NCBI GenBank assembly: GCA_964608675.1
Contig: CAZSOZ010000001.1
Coordinates: 221,272-285,271 of the forward strand
Direction of reading: 5' to 3'
DNA length: 64,000 bases
Origin: an uncultured archaeon
Lineage (GTDB): Archaea; Iainarchaeota; Iainarchaeia; Iainarchaeales; 1-14-0-10-31-34
The notes below the pieces were generated by a model that worked only from the letters and a program-made list of their open reading frames with translations, was not told the DNA's origin and did not search any database. This document shows positions 11,191 to 58,900 of the stretch, in pieces (positions within the stretch are counted from its first letter, which is position 1; each line of letters begins with the position of its first letter). The translations under genes were made by a program, and so were the position numbers.

Positions 11191-11251
11191 TTTTTTTTCC
11201 CTCTTTTATTATTGCCTCTTCAAAGTATTAAATTTTTTGTTTTTTTTTGGT

Positions 11252-11689: not shown

Positions 11690-11706
11690 TTTTTTTCCTG
11701 ATTTTT

Positions 11707-33065: not shown

Positions 33066-33182
33066 TTTGATTGCTGATTCTTTAAAGGAAAAAATTTTTC
33101 AAAAACCTGTTTTTTAAATTGAATCAAAAAATAAATTCCAATTCTTTAATTCCCTTATTTTTTTTTGCCTGTTTTTTTTTTA

Positions 33183-34172: not shown

Positions 34173-34179
34173 TTTTTTT

Positions 34180-35076: not shown

Positions 35077-35088
35077 TTTTTTTTTACC

Positions 35089-36591: not shown

Positions 36592-38358
<1,767 letters not shown>

Positions 38359-38402
38359 TTTATATTCCCATTTATATGTTGTTGTTTATCCTTTTTATTT
38401 TT

Positions 38403-39503
38403 TCATGTCGCTTTAGTTATTGCACTTGGATTAGATTCGTTTCCATACCAGTCCACTGCAGTTAAATAAAAGTAATTTGTCTGCCATAATTCCAGCTCTT
38501 TTCCTGTTTCTTCTTTTGAGGAAACTGCGTTCAGAACATATGCAGTGAATGCCTGGCTGTCTTCTTTGCTTCTGTAAATCCTGTATTCTTTTAAATCTTC
38601 TTCTGGGTTTGCATTCCATGCAATAAGTATTTTGCCGTCTGTTTTTCTTGCAGTTATTCCTGTTGGAGCAGAGGGAGCAATCGAATCATTTTTTACTTTT
38701 ATTCCTGTGATTTCAAAAACTTTTCCTGTGTTTTTTATTTCAATTATATATTCTCCTTCTTTTTCAGGAGCAGTTAATTCTGCTGAAAAAATTTTTGAAC
38801 AGGAACTGCATAAATTTTTTGTTATTTTTTGGGTTTTTTGTGTTGAATTATTTTTAATCCATTCAACAATAAAATTGAATTCTTTTGCAGGAATTTTTTC
38901 TGCATCTACAATTAAACTAATTTTTTGGTTTGGTTTAACAAATTTTTTTTCTATTGAAATTCTTTTTATTTCAAATGTTTCTTGATGAATGCATTTTCCG
39001 TTAATGCATTCTCCTTCGTTGCATCCGCATTTTTCGCAGTTTTTTTCCAGTTTTCCGTTATTGCAGTAATTTGGCTTTTGTTTTGAACATTCTCCAAACA
39101 AAGTTCCGTCAATGCATTTTTTTTCTGTTTCAATTACAGTTATTTTCTTTTTTTTGTTTATTTGGTTTCCGTTATCCAGAATCATTTTCATTTCAATCAT
39201 GTAAACTCCTGTTTTCTGAAAGATTTCTGTGAATTCAACTGAGCATTCTGTTTTACTGCATTCTTTTTCTTTTGTTTTTTCTGGAGACAAGTAAACTATT
39301 TTTTTTATGAGGAAAGAACTTTCTGCATTTACTTCAAATAATGCTTTTTCTCCTTTCTCAAAGCTTTCTTTTGATTTAATTTCAATTTTTGATTCAGTGG
39401 TTATTCCTTTAACATTAATTATTCCTGCAGAACTCAAAGTAAAAAAAACCCCTAAAAAAACTGTTATTGAAAGAATTATTGAAAAAATATTTTTTATTTC
39501 CAT
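38403..39503 (-). CDS. Secreted or membrane-anchored protein with a Cys-rich module and a C-terminal fibronectin-III-like domain.
   Basis: N-terminal hydrophobic signal; CIDGTLFGECSKQKPNYCNNGKLEKNCEKCGCNEGECINGKCIHQ; the C-terminal PSAPTGITARKTDGKILIAWNANPEEDLKEYRIYRS...YFYLTAVDWYGNESNPS is FN3-like. Confidence 0.45.
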   Translation of the reverse strand: MEIKNIFSIILSITVFLGVFFTLSSAGIINVKGITTESKIEIKSKESFEKGEKALFEVNAESSFLIKKIVYLSPEKTKEKECSKTECSVEFTEIFQKTGVYMIEMKMILDNGNQINKKKKITVIETEKKCIDGTLFGECSKQKPNYCNNGKLEKNCEKCGCNEGECINGKCIHQETFEIKRISIEKKFVKPNQKISLIVDAEKIPAKEFNFIVEWIKNNSTQKTQKITKNLCSSCSKIFSAELTAPEKEGEYIIEIKNTGKVFEITGIKVKNDSIAPSAPTGITARKTDGKILIAWNANPEEDLKEYRIYRSKEDSQAFTAYVLNAVSSKEETGKELELWQTNYFYLTAVDWYGNESNPSAITKAT

Positions 39504-39510
39504 TTTTTTT

Positions 39511-40473
39511 TCACTTGTTTGTTTTTTCTATATTAAATCTGCTGTCAGTCAAAGTTATGTTTAAGTCATTTAATTTTATTTCTTCTATTTCTGAAGTAAA
39601 CAAAAACTGGACTTTTGCTTGAATTTGTGTTCCTGAATGCCTTATTTCAACATTGTTTTCATTGAAAAAAATTTTTATTTCTTCTGAATTGCATCCTGCA
39701 CCAACACACAAAAAAGTTATTTCGTGGTCTGATGTTGAATCAAAATGCTTGCTTGTTTTTCTGGTATCTGAATTTAAATCGCATTCTGAACAGTTTTCAT
39801 CCAGCAAATTTACTTCAATAAAAGGACTTAACTGCATGGGATTATAGCTTTCCTGATAACAGTTTTGATCTCCTCCGTAATCACATGACAAAAAATTGTA
39901 GTCTTCTGAAGACGAAACAGAAATATTTATGTCAATCTTTCTGATTAAATCTATATCAAAATTTTCTTCGCATTCATTTGAGCCATGAAAGTGCATTGAA
40001 TTGTAGTCTGTTAAAGTGTATTTTTGGCATTGTGGTTTTATAATTAAATTAATGTTTTCATCTATTCCCCCCCATAAACTGTTTTTTGGGGCTTCTACTT
40101 CAACTTCTATTAAATCATAAATTGCTGAATCACTGCTTTCAGCAAAAATTTCATATGCATTAATAAAATCAAAAAAGCTTTTGGTTTGAACTTCTTTTAA
40201 GGGAAGTTTTTGAGTAAAACTGACAGTTCTTTCTTCAATTGAATAAGTAAACGGAACAAGCCTTTCAAAATAAGTTTTTGTTGTTCCTGTCCTGTAAAAA
40301 TCTTTTATAAAACCTATGTTTGAATACTTGTATTTTACTTGGTCAACGGCGTTTGAAGCAAATGACTTTTTTTCTGCTTCCAGATACTGGCTGTTTATTT
40401 TGAATGCAAAACCTAACAGCATTAAAGACAAAACCAATCCCATTAAAACAAAAAATAATCCTTTGTTTTTCAT
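39511..40473 (-). CDS. Secreted protein with a possible class-III-like (pilin-like) N-terminus.
   Basis: MKNKG|LFFVLMGLVLSLMLLGFAF: short basic N-region, Gly, then a 20-aa hydrophobic stretch. It overlaps the upstream gene by 4 nt. Confidence 0.35.
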   Translation of the reverse strand: MKNKGLFFVLMGLVLSLMLLGFAFKINSQYLEAEKKSFASNAVDQVKYKYSNIGFIKDFYRTGTTKTYFERLVPFTYSIEERTVSFTQKLPLKEVQTKSFFDFINAYEIFAESSDSAIYDLIEVEVEAPKNSLWGGIDENINLIIKPQCQKYTLTDYNSMHFHGSNECEENFDIDLIRKIDINISVSSSEDYNFLSCDYGGDQNCYQESYNPMQLSPFIEVNLLDENCSECDLNSDTRKTSKHFDSTSDHEITFLCVGAGCNSEEIKIFFNENNVEIRHSGTQIQAKVQFLFTSEIEEIKLNDLNITLTDSRFNIEKTNK

Positions 40474-43196
40474 TTAATCCAGCCCCTGTATTCTATTACA
40501 TAAAATTCTGTTTTTGGAGAAGCATAACAATGAATGGAATCAAGATTATTTGTAGGGCATTCACTTAAATTTCCGTTTGGATTGACTTCCACGCAGATTA
40601 TTCCTTGTGTAGCAATATATTCATCTAAATAAAGTATTGTTGAAAAACTGCAGTCTGAGTCATTTCCTCCGCATAATTCAGGCACAAGATAATGATTTCC
40701 AAGAAGAATTCTTCCTGCTCCTGTACTGCAAACTGAATCATTTCCTAAATAAAAATTCAAATCAGTTTCTCCTGTGTTCAAATCTCCAATATTTGATACA
40801 TTTACATCAATAAAAATGTCTGTTTCGCTTAATATTTCTCCACTGATTATTTCAACTGCAATATCTCTTTTTTTGAATGGAATTGGAACAGTGAATGCAT
40901 TCCAGTCAATTATTTGTGTTGTTCCGTTTTCATCCACATAAGACAAATAACTTCCTTGTCCGGGAAAAACAATTGAATCTGTTTCGCATCCTAAATTTGA
41001 ATCACATGCAATATTAATTGTATAACTTCCGTGCCAAGGATTTTCAGGAGAAATGTTTCCTGCATCAAAAACAAGGTTTCCGTCAATAATTGTAGCGTTT
41101 CCGTCATCAATTATCGTAATATTTTGAGGCATTATAATTGTTACGTTGGAGTCTGTTGCTTGAGCCTGAATTTCATCTGCAATCAAATTATAGATGTCCA
41201 TTAATGCATTTGCGTCTTCTGCAAAGTAATAATTGGCATCAGTTGCATTAGCAATATTCTGTAATTCTGTTTCATCCACGTCTCCTCCAAATCCAATAGT
41301 ATAAATTTTTATTCCTAAATCTGCTGCGTCTTCTGCTGCCTGCAACGAATCCCCTGAATTTGACTGTCCGTCTGACAGCAAGACTTGGAATTTTAATGCA
41401 TATTCCGCGGTTCTTTCTGAAATTAATTCTTCTGTTCCTTCTCTTATTCCTTGTTCGATGTTTGTTCCTCCTCCGGGCAACAGGGAATTTACATCTGTCT
41501 GTAATGCAAGTTTGTTTGAATCATCTAATTTTTTTAATTGTGAATCCAGAAAAGAAGAAGTATGAAAGCTGGCTACTCCTATTTGGTCTGATGCTTTCCA
41601 TTCATTGAAATCAATAAATGTAGCAGCAGAAGCCTGAACTGCATCCATTTTTGTTCCAGAACTTAAATCCAAAGTAATTAAACCCATTGAATCAGCCGCA
41701 ATAAATGCATACCCGTTTTCGACTCTTACATCATTATATTCGTAAGGAGTCCTGTAAATTCTGTTCAATAAAGGATTATCTACATCGCTTACATCAATGG
41801 AATACAAGCCTCCTGATTCATCTGCAATATATGCAGTGTTTCCGACTACATCAACTCCTCTTGCGTTGTCTGCAGTATTATAGTTCCCTCTTGCACTAAT
41901 ATTGCTTGGATCACTTACATCAAAAACGTCCAGTCCTCTTGAACCATTTGCAACAAACACATAGTTTCCTGAAACTTTTACTCTGTAAGCTTGTCCGCCT
42001 AAATCCATTGAATCCTCAAAAGTTAAATTGTTTGGGTCACTGGCATTTAATACAACAAATCCGTCATTGTAATTTCCTATATATAAATAAGTTCCATCTG
42101 AATCAATTCCAAACGCAGTTCCAGAAGTATCATAATTGTCCTGATGATTTATATTTCCTGGATCGCTTGCATCATATGAATCAACTCCTCTTGAACCGTT
42201 TGCAGCATACAATTGATTCCCTATTTTTACAACCCCATAAGAATAGTTTCCTGATAAATCAACTCTGTCTGTTTCAAACATGTCTGTAGGATCGCTTATA
42301 TCTATTGATCTTATTCCTGAAGTGTAATCTGCCACATATGCATAATTTCCTTCAATAAAAACATCAAAAGCAATATATGTGTCTTGCCTGTCTCCATATA
42401 ATATGTCTAATGGATTGCTTACATTAAAACTGTATATTCCATAATAATAATCTGCAAGGAAAGCATAATTTCCTGAAACATCAACTGCCTGAGAATTATA
42501 TGCGTCGTATTCTCCTCCCCAGCTCATTGAACCGCTTTTGTCTATAACAAGCATTATGTCTACAGGCCTTCGGTATCCAGGGGGAAAAGCAGCAGTCAAA
42601 TTAACTATAATATTTTGATCGCATTCAAGTTCTGTGTCAGGAACCGTATTTACATCGAAAACAAAATTAAGGTCTTCTCCCATGAAATCAAAAAATATTT
42701 TTCCTGTGTCAAAAACAAATTTTTGTTCTGATTGCATTAAACCCAGAATATTTGTATCACATTCTCCTGGAGGCTGTTTTTTTACAATTAATTTTTTTCC
42801 GTAGAAAACAGTTTTATTTTCAGGGACTTCTGATCCAAAAGAGAATTCATTAAAATCTGTTCCAAAACAATCATTAAAAGTCTGGTTGTTTCTGCATTTA
42901 ATTGAATTCAAATCAAATTGTTTTACGCTTACATTTAAGTCAAGGTAATCAGGAAAAAATCCTTCAAGTTTATTGTAAATATTTTCAGCTGAAGCAGATG
43001 TATTTGCATCCATTTGACTTATAAGAAACCCTGTTTGTTCCATTGCATTGAATGCGTCGTTTAATTCCTGTCCAATGTTTCTTTCAGCTTTTTCTTCAGA
43101 AAAAAATAATCCTGCAGACAAAATTATTCCTGAAACTAAAACTAATGCAAGAATAGCATCAAAACTAAATGTAAACCCTTTATTCCCATAATTCAT
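40470..43196 (-). CDS. Giant pilin-like adhesin: class III signal peptide, then a vWA domain interrupted by an LVIVD-repeat beta-propeller, then a C-terminal Cys-containing domain.
   Basis: Likely start MNYGNKG|FTFSFDAILALVLVSGIILSAGLFF; the ORF track extends to 43241. MIDAS DIMLVIDKSGSMSW is followed by about 300 aa of LVIVD-like repeats (YAFLADYYYGIYSFNVSNPLD, YAYVADYTSGIRSIDISDPTD, YVFVANGSRGLDVFDVSDPSN, TAYIADESGGLYSIDVSDVDNP, YAFIAADSMGLITLDLSSG). The vWA then resumes (GGGTNIEQGI, LLSDGQSN, IYTIGFGGD). Confidence 0.7.
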   Translation of the reverse strand: MNYGNKGFTFSFDAILALVLVSGIILSAGLFFSEEKAERNIGQELNDAFNAMEQTGFLISQMDANTSASAENIYNKLEGFFPDYLDLNVSVKQFDLNSIKCRNNQTFNDCFGTDFNEFSFGSEVPENKTVFYGKKLIVKKQPPGECDTNILGLMQSEQKFVFDTGKIFFDFMGEDLNFVFDVNTVPDTELECDQNIIVNLTAAFPPGYRRPVDIMLVIDKSGSMSWGGEYDAYNSQAVDVSGNYAFLADYYYGIYSFNVSNPLDILYGDRQDTYIAFDVFIEGNYAYVADYTSGIRSIDISDPTDMFETDRVDLSGNYSYGVVKIGNQLYAANGSRGVDSYDASDPGNINHQDNYDTSGTAFGIDSDGTYLYIGNYNDGFVVLNASDPNNLTFEDSMDLGGQAYRVKVSGNYVFVANGSRGLDVFDVSDPSNISARGNYNTADNARGVDVVGNTAYIADESGGLYSIDVSDVDNPLLNRIYRTPYEYNDVRVENGYAFIAADSMGLITLDLSSGTKMDAVQASAATFIDFNEWKASDQIGVASFHTSSFLDSQLKKLDDSNKLALQTDVNSLLPGGGTNIEQGIREGTEELISERTAEYALKFQVLLSDGQSNSGDSLQAAEDAADLGIKIYTIGFGGDVDETELQNIANATDANYYFAEDANALMDIYNLIADEIQAQATDSNVTIIMPQNITIIDDGNATIIDGNLVFDAGNISPENPWHGSYTINIACDSNLGCETDSIVFPGQGSYLSYVDENGTTQIIDWNAFTVPIPFKKRDIAVEIISGEILSETDIFIDVNVSNIGDLNTGETDLNFYLGNDSVCSTGAGRILLGNHYLVPELCGGNDSDCSFSTILYLDEYIATQGIICVEVNPNGNLSECPTNNLDSIHCYASPKTEFYVIEYRGWIK

Positions 43197-43734
43197 AAAC
43201 TTGTAATTCAATTTGAGCTTCACTTCCTCTATAATTAACAATTCTTTTGGTTGAAATCAAATATTCTGTCTGGCTTGCAGGACTTAATCCTGCACTAATT
43301 ATTATTACTCCTTGAGTTAAAACAAAATAATAATCATATCCTTCCAATCCAAGGAGTTCCCTGCTTTTATTGTAGTCAAGATTTGAAAAAGCTGTCAGTT
43401 TGTCTTCGCTTATCTGATTTCTTTCCATTAATCCAATTCTTTCAATATGGCTTTCACTTAAATCCTCCCAGTTTTCAGGATAGCCTTTTGTTTCAGTTAA
43501 TTCTTTTAAAACAAAAAAAGAAGAATGATTGATTTCATTTAATTCCATGTTTCTAGTAAAATCTTTTGTGTTTTTGTTTACTGCTGAAAGAACAGAAGTA
43601 AAAATTAAAACAAAAATAAAAAACCCCATAACTAAATCAATCATGCTTGACTGTCCTCGTTTGCTTTTATGCAGGAATAAGAAAGTGCTTTTAGTCAAGC
43701 ACAAGGATTTCTTAGATTTTTTCAATTTCAACAA
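43180..43734 (-). CDS. Pilin-like protein (minor pilin / pseudopilin) with a class III signal peptide.
   Basis: KRGQSSMIDLVMGFFIFVLIFTSVLSA: G|QSS followed by a hydrophobic helix; 184 aa. Confidence 0.5.
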   Translation of the reverse strand: MLKLKKSKKSLCLTKSTFLFLHKSKRGQSSMIDLVMGFFIFVLIFTSVLSAVNKNTKDFTRNMELNEINHSSFFVLKELTETKGYPENWEDLSESHIERIGLMERNQISEDKLTAFSNLDYNKSRELLGLEGYDYYFVLTQGVIIISAGLSPASQTEYLISTKRIVNYRGSEAQIELQVYELWE

Positions 43735-44068
43735 CTCCGTTTAAATCTTTTATTCTTACATTTCCTTTTGTAATAAAAATTTCTTGGGCTATTCCATAAT
43801 AACTGCAGGAAATTCCTTCAACATCAATCCACCCTTCACCTACATTAAAGTCTTTTTCTGCATAAAATTCAACGGTTGTTTTTTTTCCTGAAGCATAAAC
43901 TGAACTGATTATATCTGAGATTTTTCTGCATTCAGCTTTTGATTCAAGATAATCTGCCATTATTTCAATTTCATTATTTTTTTCAAAACTATATGCTGCA
44001 ATTACTGCAAAAGATAAAAGCAGTACAACTGCTCCAATAATTATTTCCATTGAAACCTGGCCTTTCAT
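43712..44068 (-). CDS. Pilin-like protein with a class III signal peptide.
   Basis: MKGQVSMEIIIGAVVLLLSFAVIAA has the QxSxE motif immediately after Gly; 118 aa. Confidence 0.6.
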   Translation of the reverse strand: MKGQVSMEIIIGAVVLLLSFAVIAAYSFEKNNEIEIMADYLESKAECRKISDIISSVYASGKKTTVEFYAEKDFNVGEGWIDVEGISCSYYGIAQEIFITKGNVRIKDLNGVVEIEKI

Positions 44069-44078
44069 TTAAATCATT

Positions 44079-44507
44079 TCAGCTAATTTCAGTGAAAGTG
44101 ACATTTGAATCAGTGGATTCAACTGCAATAAAATGAAATCCTTCTTCTGTTGAAAAACTTGTTGGTTCAAGTTCTGCTTTGCTTATATCATAAACTTCAT
44201 AAGTGCTTACTAAAGAAGTCATTTCAATTATTACTTGGCTGCCAATTGTATAAAAATTTGTTACTCCTGAAGGAAGTTCTGCTTCAACTACAATAATGCT
44301 TCCGTTTCTTGTGCTTACTTCATCTGCAGCATTAACTAATTCCCTTAAAGAATAATAAGTTGTATTAAATCTCTCGTTTTCATTCACAGTAATTATTGCA
44401 AAAACAAACATTATTCCTACAATAAGCATAACAATTGCAGTAAGACTTACGTATTCAACAGAAATCTGCCCTTTATTCAAAAAACCACTTTCCTTATTTA
44501 GAAACAA
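44079..44507 (-). CDS. Pilin-like protein with a class III signal peptide; first gene of the operon, with an apparent TTG start.
   Basis: LNKGQISVEYVSLTAIVMLIVGIMFVFA has QxSxEY; 142 aa. Confidence 0.6.
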   Translation of the reverse strand: MFLNKESGFLNKGQISVEYVSLTAIVMLIVGIMFVFAIITVNENERFNTTYYSLRELVNAADEVSTRNGSIIVVEAELPSGVTNFYTIGSQVIIEMTSLVSTYEVYDISKAELEPTSFSTEEGFHFIAVESTDSNVTFTEIS

Positions 44508-44605
44508 TCTTTATCAATATAAATCTTTTCAGCTAAAAAAATAAACTATTTTCAAAAAGCAATCGCCCAAAAAAACTGCTTTCGTTCGTCAATTAACGTA
44601 ATTTT

Positions 44606-45544
44606 TTGTTTTTCGTTATATTTTTAGTTTGCTCTGCAAAAATATATTTAATGTTTTCAGTTAAAAGCAAGGCATCAGAAGAACAGGAATTATGGAAAAA
44701 AATAGAGGACTTAGAAAATTCCCTTAAAAAAGCTGAATCTGCCAATAAACCTGAAATCGAAATTCAGTTAGCAAAACTTAAATTTCAGTTATCTGAACTT
44801 CAGAAGCCTTCAAAAAAAAGAAATCTTGATTTTGAAGTTGAACTGCAAAAAAAGCAGTCTCAATACAATGATTTATATGAAAAATACTCTAAATTAAGGC
44901 AGGCAGTAGGTTCAGTAAGTTCTGTTTCTGAAATAGAAGAAAAGCAGAAAGAAAAAGAACTAAAAGACAAACTGCATAAATTTCTTCTCAAAAAATATGC
45001 TGACATAATAAATGAAACCGAAAAAAAAACTATTGGAGAAATAAAAGGTCTTATTGATCCAGATGATTTAAGCATTCAGTCTCTTTTGGCAGAATTAATT
45101 ACAGAAAATTATTCTTTCAGCAAAAATTATCTTTCAATGGCAAAAGAAGCCTATGATTTTGTTTTAAAAGAAATTTCTTTTGTTGAATCAGATATAAAAA
45201 TCAATTTTTGGCTTACTCCTACTGAAATAATAAAAAACAAATTTGCAGACGATGAAGATTTAGCTGTGTTTTTATGCACTTTGCTTTATGCTTTAGGAGA
45301 CGAAAACGCGTTTGTGATTGTAGCTGAAATGGAAAACCTTTCAAGCCATGCTTTTGTTATTACTGAACACAAAAACAAATTTTATTTGTTTGACTCTTCA
45401 CAGAAAAAATCTTTTAATGAATTTTCAGGAAAAAAAGAAGAAATATTAGAAAATTATTCTTTCAGGGACTCAAAAATCAAGAGATTTTTATACAGATTTA
45501 ATGCATTAGAATACGAGCAGTTTCCTGAAGAAAGAACAGAATGA
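44606..45544 (+). CDS. Coiled-coil protein with a C-terminal transglutaminase-like (Cys-His-Asp) core.
   Basis: DLAVFLCTLLYALGDENAFVIVAEMENLSSHAFVITEHKNKFYLFDS has Cys, His and Asp in the order and spacing of transglutaminase-like/papain-like cores. The N-terminal 120 aa is coiled-coil. Confidence 0.35.
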   Translation: MFFVIFLVCSAKIYLMFSVKSKASEEQELWKKIEDLENSLKKAESANKPEIEIQLAKLKFQLSELQKPSKKRNLDFEVELQKKQSQYNDLYEKYSKLRQAVGSVSSVSEIEEKQKEKELKDKLHKFLLKKYADIINETEKKTIGEIKGLIDPDDLSIQSLLAELITENYSFSKNYLSMAKEAYDFVLKEISFVESDIKINFWLTPTEIIKNKFADDEDLAVFLCTLLYALGDENAFVIVAEMENLSSHAFVITEHKNKFYLFDSSQKKSFNEFSGKKEEILENYSFRDSKIKRFLYRFNALEYEQFPEERTE

Positions 45545-45626
45545 ATTATGTAGCCTTTTCATTTTATTTTTAAACCTTTTTTTCTTTTTCTATTATGTTT
45601 GTTTTCATAAAAATTATGAAACGACT

Positions 45627-45737
45627 CTTTTCTTTTTTCCGAAAAAGAAAAGTGCAAGCTGCAATTTAATCCCAAAAGGATTAAGTGCACACAAAAACTG
45701 AAAAAGTTTTTGTAGTGCCTAAAAGAAAAAAGGCACT
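45627..45737 (+). promoter_or_regulatory. Cluster of three hairpins in the 5' region of gap-pgk.
   Basis: An 11-bp stem cttttcttttt/aaaaagaaaag (45627-45652); a 7-bp stem aaaaact/agttttt (about 45692-45710); and a 7-bp stem agtgcct/aggcact (45714-45737). Confidence 0.3.
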
Positions 45738-45770
45738 AGTTCATAAAAATAATAATTTTTTCAGGGGGAT

Positions 45771-46751
45771 TTGATGATTAAAGTTGCAATAAATGGTTTT
45801 GGAAGAATTGGAAGGATTATTTTAAGAGAGGGATTAAACAGAAAAAACATTGATTTTGTTGCAGTAAATGATTTGACTGACAATAAAAATTTGGCGCATT
45901 TATTCAAGCATGATTCAGTTCACGGAACCTTTCAGGGAGAAGTTTCTTTTGATGAAAACAGCATTTCTGTTAACGGAAAAAAAATAAAGGTTTTTTCAGA
46001 ACCCAACCCTGAAAAACTTCCCTGGAAAGAGCTTGGAGTTCAAGCAGTATTTGAATGCACAGGAAAATTAAGAAAAAACGAGGATTTTAAAAAGCATTTA
46101 ATGGCCGGAGCAAAAAAAGTAATTGTTTCTGCTCCTGCTGAAGGAGTTGATTCAACTGTTGTTTTAGGTGTAAATGATTCAAAGGAATGGACTTCTTTAT
46201 CTAATGCTTCCTGTACTACCAACTGTCTTGCTCCAGTTGCAATGGTTTTGGAAAAAGAATTTGGAATTGTTTCAGGAATGATGAACACAATTCATGCTTA
46301 CACAAGCGATCAAAGACTTTTGGATGCTCCTCATAAGGATTTAAGGAGAGCAAGAGCTGCTGCTTTATCAATTATTCCTACAACTACTGGAGCAACAAAA
46401 GCAGTAGGAAAAGTTCTTCCTTCTGTTGAAGGAAAACTGGACGGAGTATCTTTAAGGGTGCCTGTTCCTGCAGGGTCGATAACAGATTTTGTTTGTGTGT
46501 TAAAAAAAGAAGCAACTGTTGAAGAAGTTAATTCAGCTTTAAAGAAGGCATCTGAAACTTATTTGAAAGGCATACTTGAATATACTGAAGAACCTTTGGT
46601 TTCAAGAGACATTATTGGAAACAAGCATTCAAGCATTGTTGATTCTTCTTTAACTCAAGTAGTAAACAAAAATATGGTGAGAGTTCTTTCGTGGTATGAT
46701 AATGAATGGGGGTATTCTGCAAGAATGCTTGACTTAATTGAAAAAATTTGA
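45771..46751 (+). CDS. gap: Glyceraldehyde-3-phosphate dehydrogenase, type I (bacterial/eukaryotic type).
   Basis: INGFGRIGR and SNASCTTNCLAP (active-site Cys); 326 aa; GGGGGA ribosome-binding site upstream. Confidence 0.9.
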   Translation: MMIKVAINGFGRIGRIILREGLNRKNIDFVAVNDLTDNKNLAHLFKHDSVHGTFQGEVSFDENSISVNGKKIKVFSEPNPEKLPWKELGVQAVFECTGKLRKNEDFKKHLMAGAKKVIVSAPAEGVDSTVVLGVNDSKEWTSLSNASCTTNCLAPVAMVLEKEFGIVSGMMNTIHAYTSDQRLLDAPHKDLRRARAAALSIIPTTTGATKAVGKVLPSVEGKLDGVSLRVPVPAGSITDFVCVLKKEATVEEVNSALKKASETYLKGILEYTEEPLVSRDIIGNKHSSIVDSSLTQVVNKNMVRVLSWYDNEWGYSARMLDLIEKI

Positions 46752-46760
46752 GGAAAAAAA

Positions 46761-47969
46761 ATGCTGAAACCGATTTCTGAAATTCAAATAAAAGGAAAAA
46801 CAATTTTAGTAAGAGCAGACTTAAATTCTTCTGTTAAAAACAGAAAAATTATTTCAGGCCAAAGACTTAAAGAGCATTCTAAGACACTTTTAATGCTTTC
46901 CTCTAAAAAAGCAAAAACAGTTGTTCTTTCTCATCAGGGAAGAAAAGAACGCGATGACTTTATTTCATTAAAAAATCATCTTTCAATTTTAGAAGAACTA
47001 ACAGGAAAAAAAATTCAATTCAGTTCATGGAAAGAAAATTTCAAACAAAAAATTTCTGCTTTAAAGGAAGAAGAAATTCTGTTAATGGAAAACACAAGGT
47101 TTTTGGAATTTGAGTCAGAAGAAAAAACTCCTGAAGAACACTCAAAGCAGAAAATAATTCAGGAACTTGCATCGGTTGCTGATGCGTTTGTTTTGGATGC
47201 ATTAAGTGTTTCTCACAGAAGCCATGCTTCTGTTGTAGGTTTTATTCCTTTAATTCCTTCTTTTTCCGGTCCAGTTTTGGATTCAGAATTAATTAATCTT
47301 GATAAAGCCCTTAATTTTAAGGAATCTCCAAGAGTTCTTTTTTTAGGAGGAGCAAAACCCGAGGATTCCATAAAAACTCTTTCTTTTTTTCTGAAAGAAA
47401 ACAAAACAGACAAAGCCCTTCTTTCAGGGATTTTAGGAGAACTTTTTTTGTCTGCTCAAGGAATAAAATTTGGTGCAAAAGACTCTTTTTTTGAATCAAA
47501 GAATTATTTTGAGTTAATTCCTGAAATAAAAGAAATTCATAGTTCATTCAAAGAAAAAATTTTTTTGCCCGAAGATTTTGCTTTAAACAAAAACAAAAAA
47601 AGAAAAAATCTTTCTGCTGAAAACCTGCCTTCAGATTTTGAAACAAAAGACATCGGAAAAAAAACAATTCAAAAATTTTCAGAGGAAATAAAAAAAGCTA
47701 AAATGATTGTATTTAACGGCCCGCCGGGAGTTTTTGAAGAAAAAGAATTTTCTTTGGGAACAAAATCAGTTTTTCAGGCCATGAAAGAAAACTCATGCTT
47801 TACTTTTTTAGGAGGAGGAGACACAGGAACTGCTTTAATTTCTTTAGGGTTTTCTCCTTGTGATTTTTCTTTTGTTTCTTTGAGTGGAAAAGCTTCTTTA
47901 AAGTATTTGTCAGGAAAAAAATTGGTTGCAGTTGAAGCATTAAAGCAATCAAAACTAAAATTAAAATAA
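46761..47969 (+). CDS. pgk: Phosphoglycerate kinase.
   Basis: GKTILVRADLN, VLSHQGR and FNGPPGVFEEKEFSLGT; 9 nt after gap. Confidence 0.8.
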   Translation: MLKPISEIQIKGKTILVRADLNSSVKNRKIISGQRLKEHSKTLLMLSSKKAKTVVLSHQGRKERDDFISLKNHLSILEELTGKKIQFSSWKENFKQKISALKEEEILLMENTRFLEFESEEKTPEEHSKQKIIQELASVADAFVLDALSVSHRSHASVVGFIPLIPSFSGPVLDSELINLDKALNFKESPRVLFLGGAKPEDSIKTLSFFLKENKTDKALLSGILGELFLSAQGIKFGAKDSFFESKNYFELIPEIKEIHSSFKEKIFLPEDFALNKNKKRKNLSAENLPSDFETKDIGKKTIQKFSEEIKKAKMIVFNGPPGVFEEKEFSLGTKSVFQAMKENSCFTFLGGGDTGTALISLGFSPCDFSFVSLSGKASLKYLSGKKLVAVEALKQSKLKLK

Positions 47970-48019
47970 TTTTTTTAAAGCTGAATAATTAATTTTTTTT
48001 TCTAAACTTAATTTTTTTT

Positions 48020-48523
48020 TTATGTTCCACAGACTTCTTCAATACAATCACAGTTTCCATCGCATGCCTCAAAATCATTTTCTGTATTGCAGGTTTCGTC
48101 TGTACAATCACAGCCGTATTCTGCGCAATACTGTGATTCACATGAAGGATTGTTCATTTTGTTGGTTAATTCTCCTATTTCGTTGTAAACACAAGGCTCT
48201 ATTGCATCAGGTCCTTCGCAGTTGTCATAAACAACAAAATTATAGATTCCTATTGCAGAGTACACTAAACTTAAAATCATAATTAAAGTAAAAATCCATG
48301 AAATTACTTCAAAGTGTTTGAAAACAATTCCTCCTATTTTAGGATTTCTTTTCATTATTTTTCCAGTTAACTTCATTTTCATTTTCTTGTCAAAAGATGT
48401 TTCACATTTTCTTAAAGTAATTCTTCGGAAAACACAGTCAAATGCTTCTTTTGCATAATCCTTGTATTTAGCTGAAAAAACTCCCAATAATGCAAAAACA
48501 ATTAAGGCAATAAAACAAATCAT
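48020..48523 (-). CDS. Small two-TM membrane protein with a Cys-rich C-terminal domain.
   Basis: TM helices at the N-terminus and mid-protein; the C-terminus is CEGPDAIEPCVYN...CESQYCAEYGCDCTDETCNTENDFEACDGNCDCIEEVCGT. Confidence 0.4.
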   Translation of the reverse strand: MICFIALIVFALLGVFSAKYKDYAKEAFDCVFRRITLRKCETSFDKKMKMKLTGKIMKRNPKIGGIVFKHFEVISWIFTLIMILSLVYSAIGIYNFVVYDNCEGPDAIEPCVYNEIGELTNKMNNPSCESQYCAEYGCDCTDETCNTENDFEACDGNCDCIEEVCGT

Positions 48524-48588
48524 TCAATCACTTTTTAGAAATAAATATTACTGCAGGAATCCTTTTTAATTGAATTTACCTGCTTAGT

Positions 48589-51273
48589 TCATTCAATTAA
48601 TACTGCCGGCTTTAATGGAAAAGCATTTCCTGCTTTTTTCTCTGAACTTTTTTCTGCTTCAATTAATTCAATTTCTGCGTTGAATTTTTCTTTTAATTTT
48701 TTTAGGTTTTCTTTTAAGGCTTTTATTTCATTTATTTCAATTAATTCCTGTGTTTCATTCAGTTTTTTTACTGCAGTCTGAACAAATCCTTTTGCTTCTT
48801 TTGCATGCTGTTTTCCTTCTTTTGTCTGCATTGCTTTTTTCATTCCAAACCCAAATTCAATTCTGTTGTTTTCCTGCTTTAATTTTTCTTCAAACAATTT
48901 TTTCATTAGAATCCATTTCCATTCAGGTGCAGTAAAAATTTTTATTCTGCTTATTTTTTGTTTTCCTGCAAGCTCTTTAATTTGTTCAACATCAGATTCC
49001 AGATTTTCAATGAATTCCTGTTGTTTTTCTATTTGAACGTAAATTTTTTTTTCTTCTGCTTTCGGCCATTCCTGTAAGCTGGCAAAACCTTTTCCTTTAA
49101 GTTTTTCCCATAATTCTTCACTTAAATGAGGTGCAAAAGGATTCAGCATTAAAACAAGTTTTTCAATTCCTTCTCTGAAAACAGGGCTTTCTTTTTTTTC
49201 AAATTTTCCCAGTTCACTGCTTAACTGGCTTAATTCTGAAACAGCTTTGTTTAACTGCAGGCTTTCAGTGTATTCAGTGCATTTTTTTATTGTTCTTTGA
49301 ATTTTTGAAAGCAGTAATTTTTCTTTTGAATCAAGTTTTGTTTTTATTTTTTCTTTTTTTGGGTTTTCTTTGATGATTGAATAAATTCTGTTTAAAAACT
49401 TGAATGAATTTTCTGTTCCTTTTGAATTCCATTCCATTTCGCTTTCCGGATTGCTTGCAGACAAAATAAACACTCTTGCAGTATCTGCTCCAAATCTTTG
49501 AATTATTTCTCCTGGGTCAACTATATTTCCCAGGCTTTTGCTCATTGCTTTTCCGTCTTTTAAAACCATTCCTTGTGTAAGGAGTTTTTCAAAAGGTTCA
49601 TCAATTTTTATTAAACCCAAATCTCTTATTGCTTTAGTGAAAAACCTTGCATACATTAAATGAAGTATTGCGTGTTCTATTCCTCCAATGTACTGGTTTA
49701 CAGGCATCCAGTATTCTGCTTCTTTTTTGTCAAACATTTTGTCTGTTTTAGGAGAGCAGTACCTTAAAAAATACCAGCTTGAATCAAAAAAAGTGTCCAT
49801 AGTGTCTGTTTCTCTTCTGGCTTTTCCTTTGCATTTTGGGCATTCTGTTTCAACAAATTCTTTAACTGAATCCAGAGGATTTCCTTTTCCTGTAAATTCT
49901 GCGTTTTCAGGAAGCTTAATCGGAAGATTTTTTTCTTGAACCAACTGAATCCCGCATTTTTTACAGTAAACAACAGGAATTGGTGTTCCCCAAAACCTCT
50001 GCCTTGAAATCAGCCAGTCCCTCAACTTATAATTTACGGTTTTTTTTCCTATTTTTTTTTCTTCTAAAAAATCACTTATTTTTTCTTTTGCTTTTTCTGA
50101 ATTCATTCCATTAAACTCTTTTGAGTTAACCATTATTCCTTCTTCAGTGAAAGCTTCTTTCATTTCTTCTGCTTTTAGTTTTTTTTCTTTGGGCTGAATT
50201 ACAACTTTAATTGGCAGACCATATTTTTTTGCAAACAAAAAATCTCTTTGGTCGTGCGCTGGAACAGCCATTACTGCTCCTGTACCGTATTCCATTACAG
50301 CGTAATCAGCAACAAAAATTTTGCATTCTTCTCCATTAACAGGATTAATGAAATGTTTTCCGATAAACATTCCTTTTTTTTCCAGTCCTTCTGATGTTCT
50401 TTCAATTATTGTCTGTTTTTTTACTTCCTTTAAGAATTCATTTAATTTTTCTTTGTATTTTGTTCCTTTAACCCATTCTTTTATTTTTTCGTGTTCCGGC
50501 GCAAACACTAAATAAGTTATTCCAAAAATTGTGTCTGGCCGTGTAGTAAAAGTTGAAATTGTTTCTCCTGTTTCTTTTACTTTAAAATAAATTTCAGTTC
50601 CCTTGCTTTTTCCAATCCAGTTTTTTTGCATTACTTTAACTCTTTCAGGCCAATCCTTTAATTTTTTTAAGTCTTCTAATAGTTCATCTGCATAATCAGT
50701 TATTTTCAGAAACCATTGCTCTAATTCTTTTTCTCCTGCAATACTTTTGCATCTCCAGCATTTTCCGTTTTCAACCTGCTCGTTTGCTAAAACTGTTCTG
50801 CATTCTTTGCACCAGTTTACTTTTGATTTTTTTTTGTAAGCCAGACCTTTTTTGTAAAATTCTCTGAACAGCCATTGATTCCATTTATAGTATTCTGGAT
50901 CGGCTGTAGCAAAGCTTCTGTTCCAGTCATAACTGAATCCAAGCATTTTTTGTTGTTCTTTCATTTCTTGAATTCTTTGGTAAGTCCATTTTTTTGGGTT
51001 TACTTTGCTTTTGATTGCCGCGTTTTCTGCAGGCAAACCTAAGGCATCATATCCCATTGGATACAATACATTAAATCCTTTCATTCTTTTGAATCTTGCA
51101 AGCGCGTCTCCGATTGAATAATTCCTTACATGCCCCATATGCAGTTTTCCTGAAGGATAAGGGAACATTTCCAGTACATAATATTTTTTTTTCTTTGAAT
51201 CAGTTTTTACTTCAAAAACTTTTTTTTCTTTCCATTTTTTCTGCCATTTTTCTTCAATTTTTTTATGGTTCAT
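48589..51273 (-). CDS. leuS: Leucyl-tRNA synthetase, bacterial type.
   Basis: [48 protein letters not shown] is near-identical in pattern to E. coli LeuRS; KMSKS (KMSKSLGN) is present; 894 aa with a Lys/Glu-rich C-terminal tail. Confidence 0.9.
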
Positions 51274-51585: not shown

Positions 51586-52788
51586 ATGGAAAAGGAGTTT
51601 GACGTAATTGTTGTTGGAGGAGGTCCTGCTGGATTGCGGACAGCAGAAAAAACAGCAGAAAAAGGCCTTAAAGTTTTATTGCTTGAAAAAGATCAGGAAA
51701 TAGGAAGCCCTGTAAGATGCGGGGAAGGCCTTGGGTTAGGCTGGTTTAACAGACTGGGAATTGAACCAAAACCTGAATTTGCTGTACAGCCAATGTATGG
51801 AGCAGTCTTGTATTCTCCTTCAGGAAAAGAATTAATTGTAAGGTTTGATAAAATTTCAGGTTATATTATTGAAAGAAGAATTTTTGAAAAATTTCTTGCA
51901 AGACAAGCTTCAAGGAAAGGAGCAAAAATTCTTGCAAAAGCAACTGCCTTAAATGTTTTAAAAGAAGGAAATCAAGTTATTGGAATTAAAGCTTTAATTG
52001 ACGGAAAAGAAGAAGAACTAAAAGCTAAAATTGTTGTTGCTGCTGACGGAGTTGAATCTGTTATTGCAAGAAAAGCAGGTTTAAACACTACAAACAATCT
52101 TTATCATGTGGATTCAGGATACCAGTATGAAATGGCAGGAATTAAAATAAAGCACTCTGATTTAATTGCATTATATTTTTCAAACCAGCACGCTCCAAGA
52201 GGATACGTCTGGATTTTTCCTAAAGGAAAAGATTATGCTAATGTAGGCGTTGGAATTCTTGGTTCTGATACCAAAACAGCAAAAAAATACTTGGATGAAT
52301 GGCTTGAAACACAGCCTGAACTAAAAAATGCAAGCAAAGTAGTTGTTAATGCTGGCTGTATTCCTGTTGGAGGCTTTTTGGATAAAATGACTTCTCATGG
52401 TTTAATTGTTGTAGGAGATGCAGCTCATCAGGTTAATCCAATTCATGGAGGCGGAATGGGTATTGCGATGGAAGCAGCAGATGTTGCTTCAGAAGTAATA
52501 AAAGAAGCTTTTAATTCAAATGATTTTTCTGACAAAAAACTTTCAGAGTATACTTCCAGATGGTATCAAAAAAGAGGAAATAAACTAAAAAACATTTTAA
52601 AGAAAAGAAAAATGCTTGAATCAATTTCTGATGAAGATTTTGAAGTTTTGGTTAATTCTTTAAGTGGGGAAGACGTATTAAAATTGGCGGAAGGCGAATT
52701 AATGGAGTCAGCAAAACTGCTGACAAAAAAACTTGTGAAAAACCCAAAACTTGCAATGCTTATGGTTAAATACCTTAAAGAAAAATAA
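51586..52788 (+). CDS. Geranylgeranyl reductase family flavoprotein (archaeal lipid saturation type).
   Basis: DVIVVGGGPAGLRTAEKTAEKGLKVLLLEKDQEIGSPVRCGEGLG FAD-binding region, about 400 aa, directly downstream of the ferredoxin. Confidence 0.75.
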   Translation: MEKEFDVIVVGGGPAGLRTAEKTAEKGLKVLLLEKDQEIGSPVRCGEGLGLGWFNRLGIEPKPEFAVQPMYGAVLYSPSGKELIVRFDKISGYIIERRIFEKFLARQASRKGAKILAKATALNVLKEGNQVIGIKALIDGKEEELKAKIVVAADGVESVIARKAGLNTTNNLYHVDSGYQYEMAGIKIKHSDLIALYFSNQHAPRGYVWIFPKGKDYANVGVGILGSDTKTAKKYLDEWLETQPELKNASKVVVNAGCIPVGGFLDKMTSHGLIVVGDAAHQVNPIHGGGMGIAMEAADVASEVIKEAFNSNDFSDKKLSEYTSRWYQKRGNKLKNILKKRKMLESISDEDFEVLVNSLSGEDVLKLAEGELMESAKLLTKKLVKNPKLAMLMVKYLKEK

Positions 52789-55995: not shown

Positions 55996-58900
55996 ATGAA
56001 ATTAAATTTCCTTTTAATTTTAATTCTTTTGTTTTTGTTTTCTGGCTGTTCAGAGGAAAAACTTGAATACAAAAACGCGTGCCTTTCTCTGACTTCTTAT
56101 TCTTTTCAGGAAATTCCTGAATGCAGTTCTCAGGAAGACTGCTTTAAAGAAGTTGAAAAACACTTGTTTGATTTTAAGCAAACTTTTTCTTTTGAATCTT
56201 CTGATAAACTTCATTCTTATAAAAATAATCTTGCTTCTTCTTGGCTTTATTTTAATAAATCCCTTAAGCTGGTAAAGGAACTAAACCGTTTGTGTTATTC
56301 TGATGATTTTTCTTTTCTGCCGGAAAAAACCAATGAACTGGTTTTTTCTTTGGAAAAAGCATTTGAATTTTCAGATAAAGCAAGCCTTGATTCTTTTTCT
56401 TTTCTTTTAACAGAAAAAAATTTTCTGAACAAACAAAACATTGAATTAATTCCTGAAGAGCTTTTGTTTGATGATTTTATTTTATTTAATCACAATCTGA
56501 ATGAATTGTCTACTCCTGAAATATACAAGTCTTCTGGTTCTTATGTTTCAAAATATTTTAATGCTTCAGCAGAATTCAATGATTTTTCCTCTAAATTTGG
56601 TTTTTATTCTCTTTATTTGAATGAATTCACTTCCTCTGACTTAATTAATTTTTATCAAAAAGACGCTCTTGATTCAGTTAAATCAAATAAATTTTATGTT
56701 CCACTGATGAAAAAAACTTTTTCTTCGGTTTCTTCCTTTATTTTCGGCTTAAATGACTTAAAAAGAACTGTTTCTGTTCTTAATTCAATTCCTTCAAACA
56801 AACTGTTTTTTTTGTATGGAAATTTTGTTTCTCCAAAAAATTCTGTTGCATCAGAATTTTCTCTGCTCGTTAAAAAAGTTTCAGAGCACAAGTTGTCTTT
56901 AAATGAATCAAATAATTCTTTGGTTTTGGAAATTGAATCTGATTTTAATGAAATTTCTTTTAAGCTTGACGAGCTCTCTGTTTCTTCTGTAAGCAGATTT
57001 GATTCAAATATAACTTCTTTTCTTTTTGAGGAACTGAATGCTTCTTTTATTTCAGAAAACAAAAACGAAATTTTTTCTGCTGAAACTTTTGTTTTTGAAT
57101 CAAGAAAAAAGCTTTCACTGCTTAAATCAAAGTTCAATGAATTAAAAAGAAAGGATTCTTTTAATGAAATTTCTTTGGGAAAAAAATCTTCCCTGCTTAA
57201 GCAAATTAAAGCTGAAACTCTTTCCCTGAAAGAAGACATTGGTTTTTTTGCAGGAGCCTTTATTGATGAATTAATTGTTTTATGCAGTACAAAAACAGAA
57301 TTAATTTCTTCAGAATTAAACCAAAAAGATTTTTCTTCTTTTTCTTGGGAAATAACTTCTCTTGCCTCCAGAACTGCAGTAAAAATTGATTTATTTGAAG
57401 ATGCTTCAAAAGAACAAAAAATTATTTACTGTAAGGACACCATTCTCCTCAAAAAACAGCTTGATTCTGCTTTAGAAAACCAGGAAAAATTTCTTTTAAG
57501 TTCTTCTGAGTCCCTGAACGAATGCATTTCTTCCCTTGAAAAAATTTTTTATTCAAAAAATCTTTCAGTTTTTGTTGATTCTTTTTATTCCCTTAAATCC
57601 ATGCAAAAAAACAGGCTTCCTTTTTCTTATCTTTTGGATTCCTGTTCAGACCTCAAAAAAAGAATAACTGTTTACCTTTATTCTTATGATGAAGAAATAA
57701 TTCAGGCAAACGATTTTTACATCAAATCAGAAAAAATTTTATCAAATCTTTCCTTTTTATCAAAAATTTATCCCGAATTCTTTAATTCAGTCAAAACAAC
57801 CAATTTTATTTCTGATTTTGATGAAATTTCACTTGATTTTTCTTTAAAAAAACTTAAACCTGAATTTTTTCCTTTTTCTTCTGAAAAACTTTCTTTAATC
57901 AAAAAATTTAATCAAAAAATAAATTCTTTTTTTTCTTCTTCTTTTGGACAATTCCTTTCATTTAATTATTCAATAAAATCTTTTCCTTTAGAGCAGGCGG
58001 TTCTAGGAAAAACTTTTTTGGTTAAACAAAAAATCTTTTTTCCCAATCCTTTGAATGAACCAATTAACCTTGAATTCTCTTTTCTTTCTCCTTTTCTTTC
58101 TTCTGAAAATAAATTAATTCATTCATGCATTAAAGAGATAACTAAAAGCAAGTCTAATTCAAGAATTTTAGTTTCTTGTTTTCCTGAGGAAGGGCTTTTG
58201 TTTGAATCAGACAAAAATTTACTGCTTTCTTTTTTTGATTCTTTTCCTGAATTAATTGAAGCAAACCAGAATTCTGTTTTGTTTTCTAAATCCCTGAAAA
58301 TTGATTCTTTTTCACAAATTTCTTCTTTGAAGGCAGTTGTTCCTTTGGAATTTAATTCTGATAATGCTTTTGCTGTATTTAATTCACAGAAAATTCCTGT
58401 TGAAATAAAAGAAAAAAACGCGGTTTTTTATTTGGAGGAACTTAATTCAGAGCCTTTGATTGAATTATTTTTTTCTGTTTCCAAACCTGTTTCTTTTGAA
58501 TTTTCCGAGAAATCAAGAAAAAAACTTGATGAAAACACTTTTTTGGTTTTTTTTGATTTACAGTTAAAAAACAATCTGGCTTTTGATTTTGATTCAATTA
58601 AAATTTTTCTTCCTTTAAATGACTCTGATTCAATTCTTGAAGCAAAATTAACAGATTTTTCTTCTGAAATAAAAGTTTATTCTTTGGGAAAAAAATTTTT
58701 TTTTAAAACCTCTTTAAATAAACTTGAGTCAAAAAAATTTTTTCTTGAAATAAAAATAAAAGACTTTGATGAATACAAAAAATCATTGAAGAATTCTCTT
58801 TTATCTGAAATTTCATTGATTGAAGACCCTGTTTTCAGAAAAAATTTTCAGACAAAAATTAATTCTGCTGATTCCTTTGAAGAATTAATTGAATTAAATG

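Follow-up and report, generated by a model that had tools for sequence, protein, structure and literature searches.

A Predicted Hybrid gap-pgk Operon and a Chimeric Leucyl-tRNA Synthetase in a DPANN-Type Archaeon

Introduction

The closest described counterparts of the locus reported here come from Halobacteria. The two leucyl-tRNA synthetases of Natrialba magadii, LeuRS1 and LeuRS2, are natural chimeras in which a bacterial N-terminal region is joined to an archaeal C-terminal domain; they charge the tRNA(Leu) of Pyrococcus horikoshii and not that of Escherichia coli, and recognition needs a penultimate Ile and the nucleotides A47c/G47d (Fang et al. 2014, PMC4005665). According to the same work, the residues D845, I849, P962, I964, I966, and E967 of the P. 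horikoshii enzyme recognise A47c/G47d of tRNA(Leu). The haloarchaeal chimeric LeuRS corresponds to the 'LeuRS-B' of Andam et al. 2012 (PMC3436685), for which an 'extinct deep-branching donor' lineage was proposed by those authors. A combination of bacterial glyceraldehyde-3-phosphate dehydrogenase (GAPDH) with archaeal phosphoglycerate kinase (PGK) is also known from haloarchaea (PMC12525153). The present analysis concerns a stretch of DNA of 64,000 nt (hereafter, the window), in which the region 45771-51273, containing four open reading frames (ORFs), was examined in detail. This region carries gap, pgk, and leuS, the genes for a GAPDH, a PGK, and a LeuRS. All three lie where an earlier note on this DNA had placed them, and every motif quoted there was found.

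We hold it very probable that the window belongs to a DPANN-type archaeon with a hybrid gap-pgk operon, a natural chimeric LeuRS, and a mixed gene content, including genes of the methylerythritol phosphate (MEP) pathway, which together follow a known DPANN pattern and do not result from misassembly. Halobacteria offer precedents for the gap-pgk pairing and for the LeuRS, and DPANN genomes typically show such a gene mixture; the phenomenon is real and mostly known.

Domain Architecture of the Leucyl-tRNA Synthetase

Residues 1-746 of the LeuRS matched TIGR00396 with 1004.7 bits over model positions 1-780 of 843, and the remaining positions 781-843, read as the short bacterial C-terminal domain, were unmatched. 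The score against the Thermus thermophilus LeuRS (1h3n) was 830 bits. TIGR00395, the archaeal LeuRS model, reached 320 bits against a cutoff of 648.5, its best stretch covering aa 516-894 only; this same part of the protein was covered by the archaeal LeuRS models and the P. horikoshii LeuRS (1wz2) through to their own C-termini. When the last 254 residues were used as a phmmer query, 1wz2 was found with an E-value of 5.7e-25 and aligned through the final residue, and all bacterial LeuRS alignments in that search stopped at aa ~745. An end-to-end alignment pairs the last ~150 residues with 1wz2 residues 829-967, inside the C-terminal domain of the P. horikoshii enzyme, Glu822-Glu967. The boundary between the body and the C-terminal domain, Pro737, is our own mapping of the W-P motif. 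Among the motifs of the protein are HMGH (the HIGH motif), AMSKS (xMSKS), and two Cys clusters. The P. horikoshii residues D845, I849, P962, I964, I966, and E967 listed in PMC4005665 correspond to D761, I765, P889, V891, I893, and E894 of the window LeuRS, so that the recognition residues agree at five of six positions, with I replaced by V at the remaining one; the penultimate Ile is present in the C-terminal tip ...PAVLIE.

Two sets were searched with tblastn: plasmids, and genome contigs with one genome per GTDB species. In the plasmid set, the matches to bacterial leuS mostly ended at aa ~715-785 and none extended beyond aa 805; identities to the window LeuRS were 55% for Monoglobus, 51% for Brevibacillus, 51% for Fusobacterium, and 44% for E. 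coli. The only plasmid-borne LeuRS matching over the whole length was that of Haladaptatus caseinilyticus (41%, aa 24-894). In a table of per-block identities, all eight bacteria had gaps beyond aa 750, and the C-terminal domain alone, searched with tblastn against the plasmids, gave no match.

By these alignments, the enzyme is a natural chimera of a LeuRS-B body and an archaeal C-terminal domain. Its description as a 'bacterial LeuRS' in the earlier note holds for aa 1-737, about five-sixths of the protein, where the HIGH-region signature lies, and fails for the tRNA-binding C-terminal domain, which is of the archaeal type. Such an enzyme would charge archaeal tRNA in the archaeal mode, with activation and proofreading carried out by bacterial-type domains.

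The chimeric LeuRS of Halobacteria (N. magadii NmLeuRS1/2, PMC4005665) has the same domain plan, with a body extending to the W-P motif (Met1-Pro756 in NmLeuRS1, Met1-Pro737 in the window LeuRS), and both have an archaeal tail of ~150 aa with a hydrophobic-Ile-acidic tip at its end. The haloarchaeal enzyme differs in its lower identity to the window LeuRS (41% vs. 51-58% for the bodies of Clostridia), and the window protein is not acidic. Unlike the haloarchaeal form, the window form occurs in non-halophilic metagenome-assembled genomes (MAGs) labelled as DPANN and stands apart from the haloarchaeal sequence in trees. With canonical bacterial LeuRS (E. coli; T. thermophilus 1h3n/2v0c) the window enzyme shares the HIGH and xMSKS motifs, the Cys clusters, the position of the CP1 domain, the TTRPDT and HDQRD motifs, and the helical anticodon-binding domain, but in the window LeuRS an archaeal domain replaces the bacterial C-terminal end. 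Canonical archaeal LeuRS (P. horikoshii 1wz2) has a homologous C-terminal domain in which the residues binding the variable arm are kept, but it differs in type in the catalytic and editing body, and the alignment is confined to the C-terminal half.

Distribution of the Chimeric Form and tRNA(Leu)

The best 120 homologues of the window LeuRS were nearly all full-length, with identities of 54-79% and, in most cases, lengths of 890-920 aa; the exceptions were one partial sequence of 801 aa and a few proteins of up to 939 aa. The names among these 120 included Diapherotrites, Micrarchaeota, Woesearchaeota, and Nanoarchaeota, together with one 'Thermoproteota' and one 'bacterium' label. The junction of bacterial and archaeal parts inside a single leuS ORF recurs in more than 100 homologues. 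Across the searches, the chimeric form was widespread in DPANN-labelled MAGs, under the labels Diapherotrites/Iainarchaeum, Micrarchaeota, Woesearchaeota, Nanoarchaeota, and Nanohaloarchaea. When only the C-terminal domain was searched against 1.84 billion representatives, 190 matches were obtained, and the domain stood at the protein C-terminus in all 150 of the matches listed. The full-length matches had either bacterial-type bodies (including a Nanohaloarchaea fragment) or archaeal-type bodies (including 'DPANN group archaeon' and Micrarchaeota), and both body types thus occur within DPANN-labelled MAGs.

In the scan of one genome per GTDB species, matches that included the C-terminal domain (to aa 886-894) came from archaeal MAGs only, labelled 'archaeon', Woesearchaeota, Iainarchaeum, Micrarchaeota, Methanosarcinales, and, in two cases, Promethearchaeota. 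The bacterial matches, mostly Clostridia/Bacillota and Omnitrophota with 51-58% identity, stopped at aa 737-798 (most at 744-784). The two Promethearchaeota MAGs (loci L031, positions 10001-12775 on a contig of 142 kb, and L052, positions 10001-12766 on a contig of 451 kb) encode full-length chimeric LeuRS with 47% identity to that of the window. In the literature searched, no report of a chimeric LeuRS outside Halobacteria was found, which is an absence of evidence only.

Genes for tRNA-Leu were located 2.6-8.8 kb from a chimeric leuS in three archaeal MAG loci (L015, L017, and L041), and their cloverleaves were drawn by hand. In all three, the variable arm is long, its stem has 3 bp, and its loop reads UUAGU; position 47c is thereby A and position 47d is G, which are the archaeal identity elements. 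These tRNAs support the proposed recognition mode for the family, not directly for the window genome.

Origin of the LeuRS Body

Body trees were built by neighbour-joining with a simple distance correction and bootstrap, and were rooted with seven archaeal-type LeuRS; the larger set, of 67 sequences, was enriched for the bacterial sequences most like the window LeuRS. The split that separates Bacteria plus Haladaptatus from the archaeal chimeric LeuRS plus outgroup received a bootstrap of 88% with 35 sequences, 74% with 67 sequences (669 columns), and 72% with the 67 sequences taken without the editing domain. In these neighbour-joining trees, the archaeal chimeric bodies form a basal grade and are not nested within Clostridia. 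A recent import of the body from bacteria is not shown by the trees, because the body does not fall inside the bacteria most similar to it.

One way to read this topology is that the LeuRS-B body with its archaeal tail represents an old lineage resident in archaea (DPANN and some Asgard), standing beside or below all sampled bacterial LeuRS, and not a recent import from crown bacteria. The key split, at 72-88% despite a bacterial sample enriched for window-like sequences, argues for it, as do the trees of the chimeric bodies and of the C-terminal domains, whose groupings largely agree, as they would if body and tail had descended vertically together. On the other side, the trees are neighbour-joining only, with a simple distance correction and a long outgroup branch; the monophyly of the archaeal chimeric set has a support of only 5-19%, and the key split falls to 2-48% in single sub-regions. 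The bacterial sample is narrow, with one plasmid-borne Actinomycetota sequence, one Actinomycetota-labelled MAG, and no members of the candidate phyla radiation, and two Bacteroidia-labelled sequences cluster with Clostridia. Moreover, the haloarchaeal sequence lies inside Bacteria in these trees, unlike in the published tree, and the identity of the window LeuRS to Clostridia (up to 58%) equals that to other DPANN chimeras (53-57%). Weighed together, this leaves the old-lineage reading tentative and rather unlikely. The broader proposal built on it would make the chimeric LeuRS an ancient form resident in archaea, neither a haloarchaeal oddity nor a recent import, widespread in DPANN-labelled MAGs, present in two labelled Promethearchaeota, and placed beside or below all bacterial LeuRS. 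The 'extinct deep-branching donor' lineage would then live on in these archaea, the archaeal tail may have been ancestral for LeuRS-B, and the bacterial tail would have come later. We regard this proposal as distinctly unlikely.

A clade of their own for the C-terminal domains of chimeric LeuRS, as against the domains on archaeal-type bodies, was tried and rejected, with 0% bootstrap in a tree of 147 columns that has little resolution and in which the domains of either body type are interleaved. The C-terminal domains come in two sequence styles, 'EKPDFG...' and 'KTRD...LP..VL', each of which is present on both body types. This is a hint that the tail follows the lineage of the host and not the body to which it is attached, although a tree of 147 columns lacks the power to show it.

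The gap-pgk Pair

The GAPDH had been assigned to type I in the earlier note, and this assignment stood: the protein scored 430.3 bits against the type I model TIGR01534 (cutoff 367.2), with 134.9 bits for the N-terminal domain (PF00044) and 221.1 bits for the C-terminal domain (PF02800). The catalytic Cys lies within the motif S-x-x-S-C-T-T-N-C-L-A-P, present as LSNASCTTNCLAP in the translation. The start codon of gap was set to the ATG at 45774 by a 100% identical protein of 325 aa (P0121). The nearest solved structures are all bacterial (404-421 bits), namely those of Thermotoga maritima (1hdg, 421 bits, the top match), Geobacillus stearothermophilus, and Aquifex. The closest relatives, at 74-85% identity, belong to the same small group of MAGs as the LeuRS and PGK matches, and those that carry a label are named 'archaeon' only. 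At 60-66% identity the matches are mixed, with Altiarchaeota and Woesearchaeota MAGs alongside Fidelibacterota, Marinimicrobia, Cloacimonetes, Patescibacteria, and Bacteroidetes. In the neighbour-joining tree, archaeal-labelled GAPDH copies fell into at least three clusters with bacterial copies interleaved. By these comparisons, gap is clearly of the bacterial kind, with 60-65% identity of its product to enzymes from several bacterial phyla, and the enzyme has probably moved between domains more than once. A separate acquisition is suggested for the window GAPDH, because it clusters apart from the other archaeal type I GAPDHs. Single-gene phylogenies, named in the earlier note as a check on bacterial acquisition, agreed with it for GAPDH, which is interleaved with bacteria, and not for the LeuRS body, which is not nested in bacteria (neighbour-joining). 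The N-terminal VAVNDL motif and homology suggest that the GAPDH is NAD-dependent.

The PGK scored 327 bits against PF00162. The NCBIfam PGK model covers the bifunctional PGK/TIM only and does not separate archaeal from bacterial forms; rankings against solved structures, with a control, were used instead. The P. horikoshii PGK (2cun) ranked first with 228 bits, and bacterial PGKs reached at most 191 bits. The N-terminal domain aligned with that of 2cun almost without gaps, and the two share an HQG(R/K) motif in place of the bacterial HLGR. Every named homologue (44-77% identity) came from a MAG labelled as DPANN or 'archaeon'. The control, a PGK encoded beside a type I gap in the Woesearchaeota locus L011, gave the reverse order, with 1php first (295 bits) and 2cun last (197 bits), and its identity to the window PGK is only 30%. 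By these rankings, the PGK is archaeal-type and not bacterial.

Because the PGK is archaeal-type and the GAPDH of the bacterial kind, the pair is best described as a predicted hybrid operon and not as a bacterial gap-pgk operon that was imported. The gap TGA stop occupies 46749-46751 and the pgk ATG begins at 46761, which confirms the 9-nt spacer reported earlier; the comparison made there with bacterial gap-pgk operons does not extend to the origin of the PGK, whose best-ranked structure is 2cun. The 9-nt spacer and the GAGGA overlapping the gap stop suggest that gap and pgk may be co-transcribed with coupled translation.

The hybrid pair was also found in the close relatives L010 and L014, and an Altiarchaeota MAG has gap alone. 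In the Woesearchaeota MAG GCA_018698995.1 (L011, positions 6001-8337), a type I gap is followed by a bacterial-type pgk, giving a fully bacterial pair that adjoins a CDP-archaeol synthase gene and other lipid genes. Both types of pair, all-bacterial and hybrid, occur in DPANN-labelled archaea. The lower glycolysis of haloarchaea (PMC12525153) resembles that of the window in having a bacterial NAD-type GAPDH and an archaeal PGK within one archaeon; in the window, by contrast, both genes stand in one tight operon and the lineage is of the DPANN type. Bacterial gap-pgk(-tpi) operons and the L011 pair have the same layout, with gap followed by pgk on the same strand after a short spacer, but the window pgk is archaeal-type.

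Taken literally, the earlier note would mean that the archaeon imported a bacterial gap-pgk operon as a whole and a LeuRS that is bacterial throughout. The bacterial kind of gap, a LeuRS-B body at 51-58% identity to Clostridia, and the existence of an all-bacterial pair in Woesearchaeota L011 speak for such an event. Yet the window pgk ranks with archaeal PGK and is remote from the bacterial-type PGK of L011, the C-terminal domain of LeuRS is archaeal, and the corresponding end of TIGR00396 finds no counterpart, which makes the literal version very unlikely.

In the hybrid operon that we favour, the type I GAPDH would convert glyceraldehyde-3-phosphate to 1,3-bisphosphoglycerate, with cofactor and direction taken from homology, and the archaeal-type PGK of the lineage itself would make ATP from that product. 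The gap-pgk pair, the glycogen genes, and the PPDK of the window would jointly fit a fermentative, glycolytic lifestyle.

Host Identity and Integrity of the Assembly

The archaeal RecJ model NF053576 was matched with 534.5 bits (cutoff 360), and archaeal models were likewise the best matches of RqcH, the FlaI-like ATPase, the FlaJ/UpsF-like proteins, DTD2, and an enzyme of the digeranylgeranylglycerophospholipid (DGGGPL) reductase type. Ribosomal proteins, RNA polymerase, and rRNA were absent from the 64-kb window. Relatives are labelled Diapherotrites, Iainarchaeum, Micrarchaeota, Woesearchaeota, or 'archaeon', and all named close homologues of GAPDH, PGK, and LeuRS came from MAGs labelled as DPANN or 'archaeon'. 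The GC content is 25-34% throughout the window. Judged by its genes, the host is a putative low-GC DPANN-type archaeon. The earlier note had preferred an archaeon holding bacterial-type genes, and it was right on the host, as the archaeal RecJ, RqcH, pili, DTD2, and lipid reductase indicate.

Its alternative, a bacterium that acquired archaeal genes, could appeal to the bacterial-kind gap, MEP genes, and LeuRS body and to the Shine-Dalgarno-like motifs. It is highly improbable in the face of the archaeal host markers, to which the PGK and the LeuRS tail of the window are to be added, and of relatives that bear archaeal labels and archaeal-type tRNA(Leu). The motifs themselves precede 15 of the 55 ORFs (27%, against a background of 10%). 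They had been counted among the signs of bacterial acquisition; they are no mark of bacterial origin, because they also precede archaeal-type genes, namely pgk, a pilin gene (at 32392), and the gene for the reductase (at 51586), and they reflect the translation signals of the host, not the origin of a gene.

A separate Logan assembly (SRR7048224) is 100% identical over 36761-49792, a segment that spans pilus genes, gap, pgk, and part of leuS, and relatives at ~75% nucleotide identity are collinear over 34570-56643 (L010) and 35856-60620 (L014). Since independent assemblies share the gene order, misassembly is excluded as far as the window allows. A bacterial host is excluded to the same extent. 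An assembly or binning artefact joining bacterial and archaeal DNA, for which nothing specific speaks beyond the generic risk of MAGs, is of negligible probability given these assemblies, the uniform GC content, and a junction that lies within one leuS ORF and recurs among its homologues.

Some points weigh against the reading of a DPANN-type archaeon with a hybrid operon and a chimeric LeuRS. The archaeal assignment of PGK depends on one non-DPANN archaeal reference (2cun), on homologue names as given by the source, and on a margin of 37 bits. The organism names of homologues are throughout the labels that submitters gave to their MAGs. Finally, no tRNA gene (and no Rfam family) was found in the window, and the tRNA(Leu) genes seen belong to relatives, not to this genome.

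Other Genes and Features of the Window

The coordinates of the features are collected in Table 1.

Table 1. Features of the window discussed in the text, with positions counted from its first nucleotide.
Feature	Coordinates	Strand	Evidence or remark
ChaB-family small protein	864-1088	+	PF06150, 79.7 bits
dxs (MEP)	8030-9826	-	NCBIfam equivalog
ispF (MEP)	9927-10448	-	NCBIfam equivalog
ispD (MEP)	10492-11190	-	NCBIfam equivalog
dxr (MEP)	11707-12867	-	NCBIfam equivalog
Archaeal RecJ-family nuclease	27267-28685	-	NF053576 RecJ_archaeal
Archaeal type IV pilus/archaellum-like cluster	32392-44507	-	FlaI-like ATPase, two FlaJ/UpsF-like membrane proteins, pilin-like proteins; immediately upstream of gap
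Shine-Dalgarno-like GGGGG	45764-45768	+	5 nt before the gap ATG; read from the sequence, putative function
gap, type I GAPDH, 325 aa	45774-46751 (ORF 45771/45774)	+	TIGR01534, PF00044, PF02800; active site SNASCTTNCLAP
gap-pgk junction	46750-46760	+	GAGGA at 46750-46754 overlapping the gap TGA; read from the sequence
pgk, archaeal-type phosphoglycerate kinase, 402 aa	46761-47969	+	PF00162; SHQGRK motif
Predicted membrane protein with Cys-rich tail, 167 aa	48020-48523	-	Between pgk and leuS
leuS, 894 aa	48589-51273	-	HIGH-region signature of the bacterial kind
leuS C-terminal domain, aa 738-894, archaeal-type, putatively binding the tRNA(Leu) variable arm	48592-49062	-	phmmer to 1wz2
leuS body, aa 1-737, LeuRS-B: Rossmann fold, Cys clusters, editing domain, helical anticodon-binding domain	49063-51273	-	
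CP1 editing domain, aa 217-403, bacterial insertion position	50065-50625	-	PF13603, 241 bits; TTRPDT and AVPAHDQRD motifs
Geranylgeranyl-reductase-family enzyme, archaeal lipid type	51586-52788	+	TIGR02032, 246 bits (cutoff 159)

The ChaB and MEP genes cited in the earlier note are real. The MEP genes scored above the equivalog cutoffs, with 716 bits for dxs (TIGR00204, cutoff 466), 151 for ispF (TIGR00151, 116), 215 for ispD (TIGR00453, 181), and 509 for dxr (TIGR00243, 316), and they are of the bacterial kind; ispE, ispG, and ispH are not in the window. Anabolic genes of bacterial origin are said to have been described from Diapherotrites by Youssef and co-workers in 2015. According to PMC8421398, which cites Castelle and Banfield 2018 for it, the MEP pathway is present in Woesearchaeota, and a transfer from Firmicutes has been proposed there. 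Like the window, DPANN genomes with bacterial-type pathways pair an archaeal host with dxs, dxr, ispD, ispF, and sugar-metabolism genes of the bacterial kind, and nothing essential differs.

A cluster of glycogen genes includes a GT4/GT5-type synthase (17890-19116), a GH57 protein (19116-20294), a GalT-like protein (22814-23800), a PGM/PMM (23846-25213), and a debranching-enzyme-like protein (25366-27210). In the same cluster, a 593-aa protein (20586-22367, minus strand) matched the glycogen synthase family PF05693 over its full length (451 bits); we take this family to be the eukaryote-type (GT3) glycogen synthase. In the pilus cluster, the FlaI-like ATPase (35089-36591, 500 aa) has no intein; its orthologue in L010 (GCA_043824355.1, positions 517-3519) has 1000 aa and contains an intein with LAGLIDADG according to precomputed Pfam matches.

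The spacer of 226 nt before gap contains three short hairpins at 45650-45750 on the plus strand (ttaatcc/ggattaa, caaaaact/agtttttg, and agtgcc/ggcact), which are probably terminators of the upstream gene; this spacer gave no blastn alignment to L010 or L014 and no Rfam match. A terminator scan of the window found 9 candidates against 4.1 expected (sd 2.0), mostly inside coding sequence, and none was used. A sigma-70 promoter scan of the window stayed at chance level (15 found, 17 expected). The 167-aa protein between pgk and leuS had no family match; two membrane segments are predicted in it, and its acidic, Cys-rich tail reads CDCTDETC...CDGNCDCIEEVC. At the equivalent spot between pgk and leuS, the relative L010 has an unannotated gene of 162 aa.

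A small gene of the XRE helix-turn-helix family (1907-2101, plus strand) is interrupted by an in-frame TAG at 1952-1954 (NLT*EQLA), a position at which Gln would presumably be expected, and reaches 45 bits against PF01381 when the stop is read as Q. It lies within a gene-poor, AT-rich stretch of 1.5 kb (1788-3268) and is probably a pseudogene or the result of a C-to-T change; the remaining genes of the window read normally with TAG as stop. Elsewhere in the window, a protein of 1330 aa rich in Ser, Phe, Leu, and Lys (55996-59988, plus strand) has a lipoprotein-like N-terminal signal and a C-terminal membrane anchor, without a Pfam match; in L010 a gene for 1341 aa starts at the equivalent position.

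Implications

For annotation, the locus means that a bacterial N-terminal motif in an archaeal LeuRS does not make the enzyme bacterial. The two genes of an archaeal gap-pgk pair can differ in origin, and calls made from single motifs overstate horizontal transfer. At this locus, an imported catalytic module would stay compatible with the host tRNA by keeping or gaining a host-type tRNA-binding domain, and an imported catabolic GAPDH would be wired to a native PGK. A deep placement of LeuRS-B in DPANN and Asgard, if true, would bear on pre-bacterial lineages and on how aminoacyl-tRNA synthetases coevolved with tRNAs. What deserves to be followed up is how widely the chimeric LeuRS occurs in DPANN- and Asgard-labelled archaea and, possibly, how deeply it is placed there.

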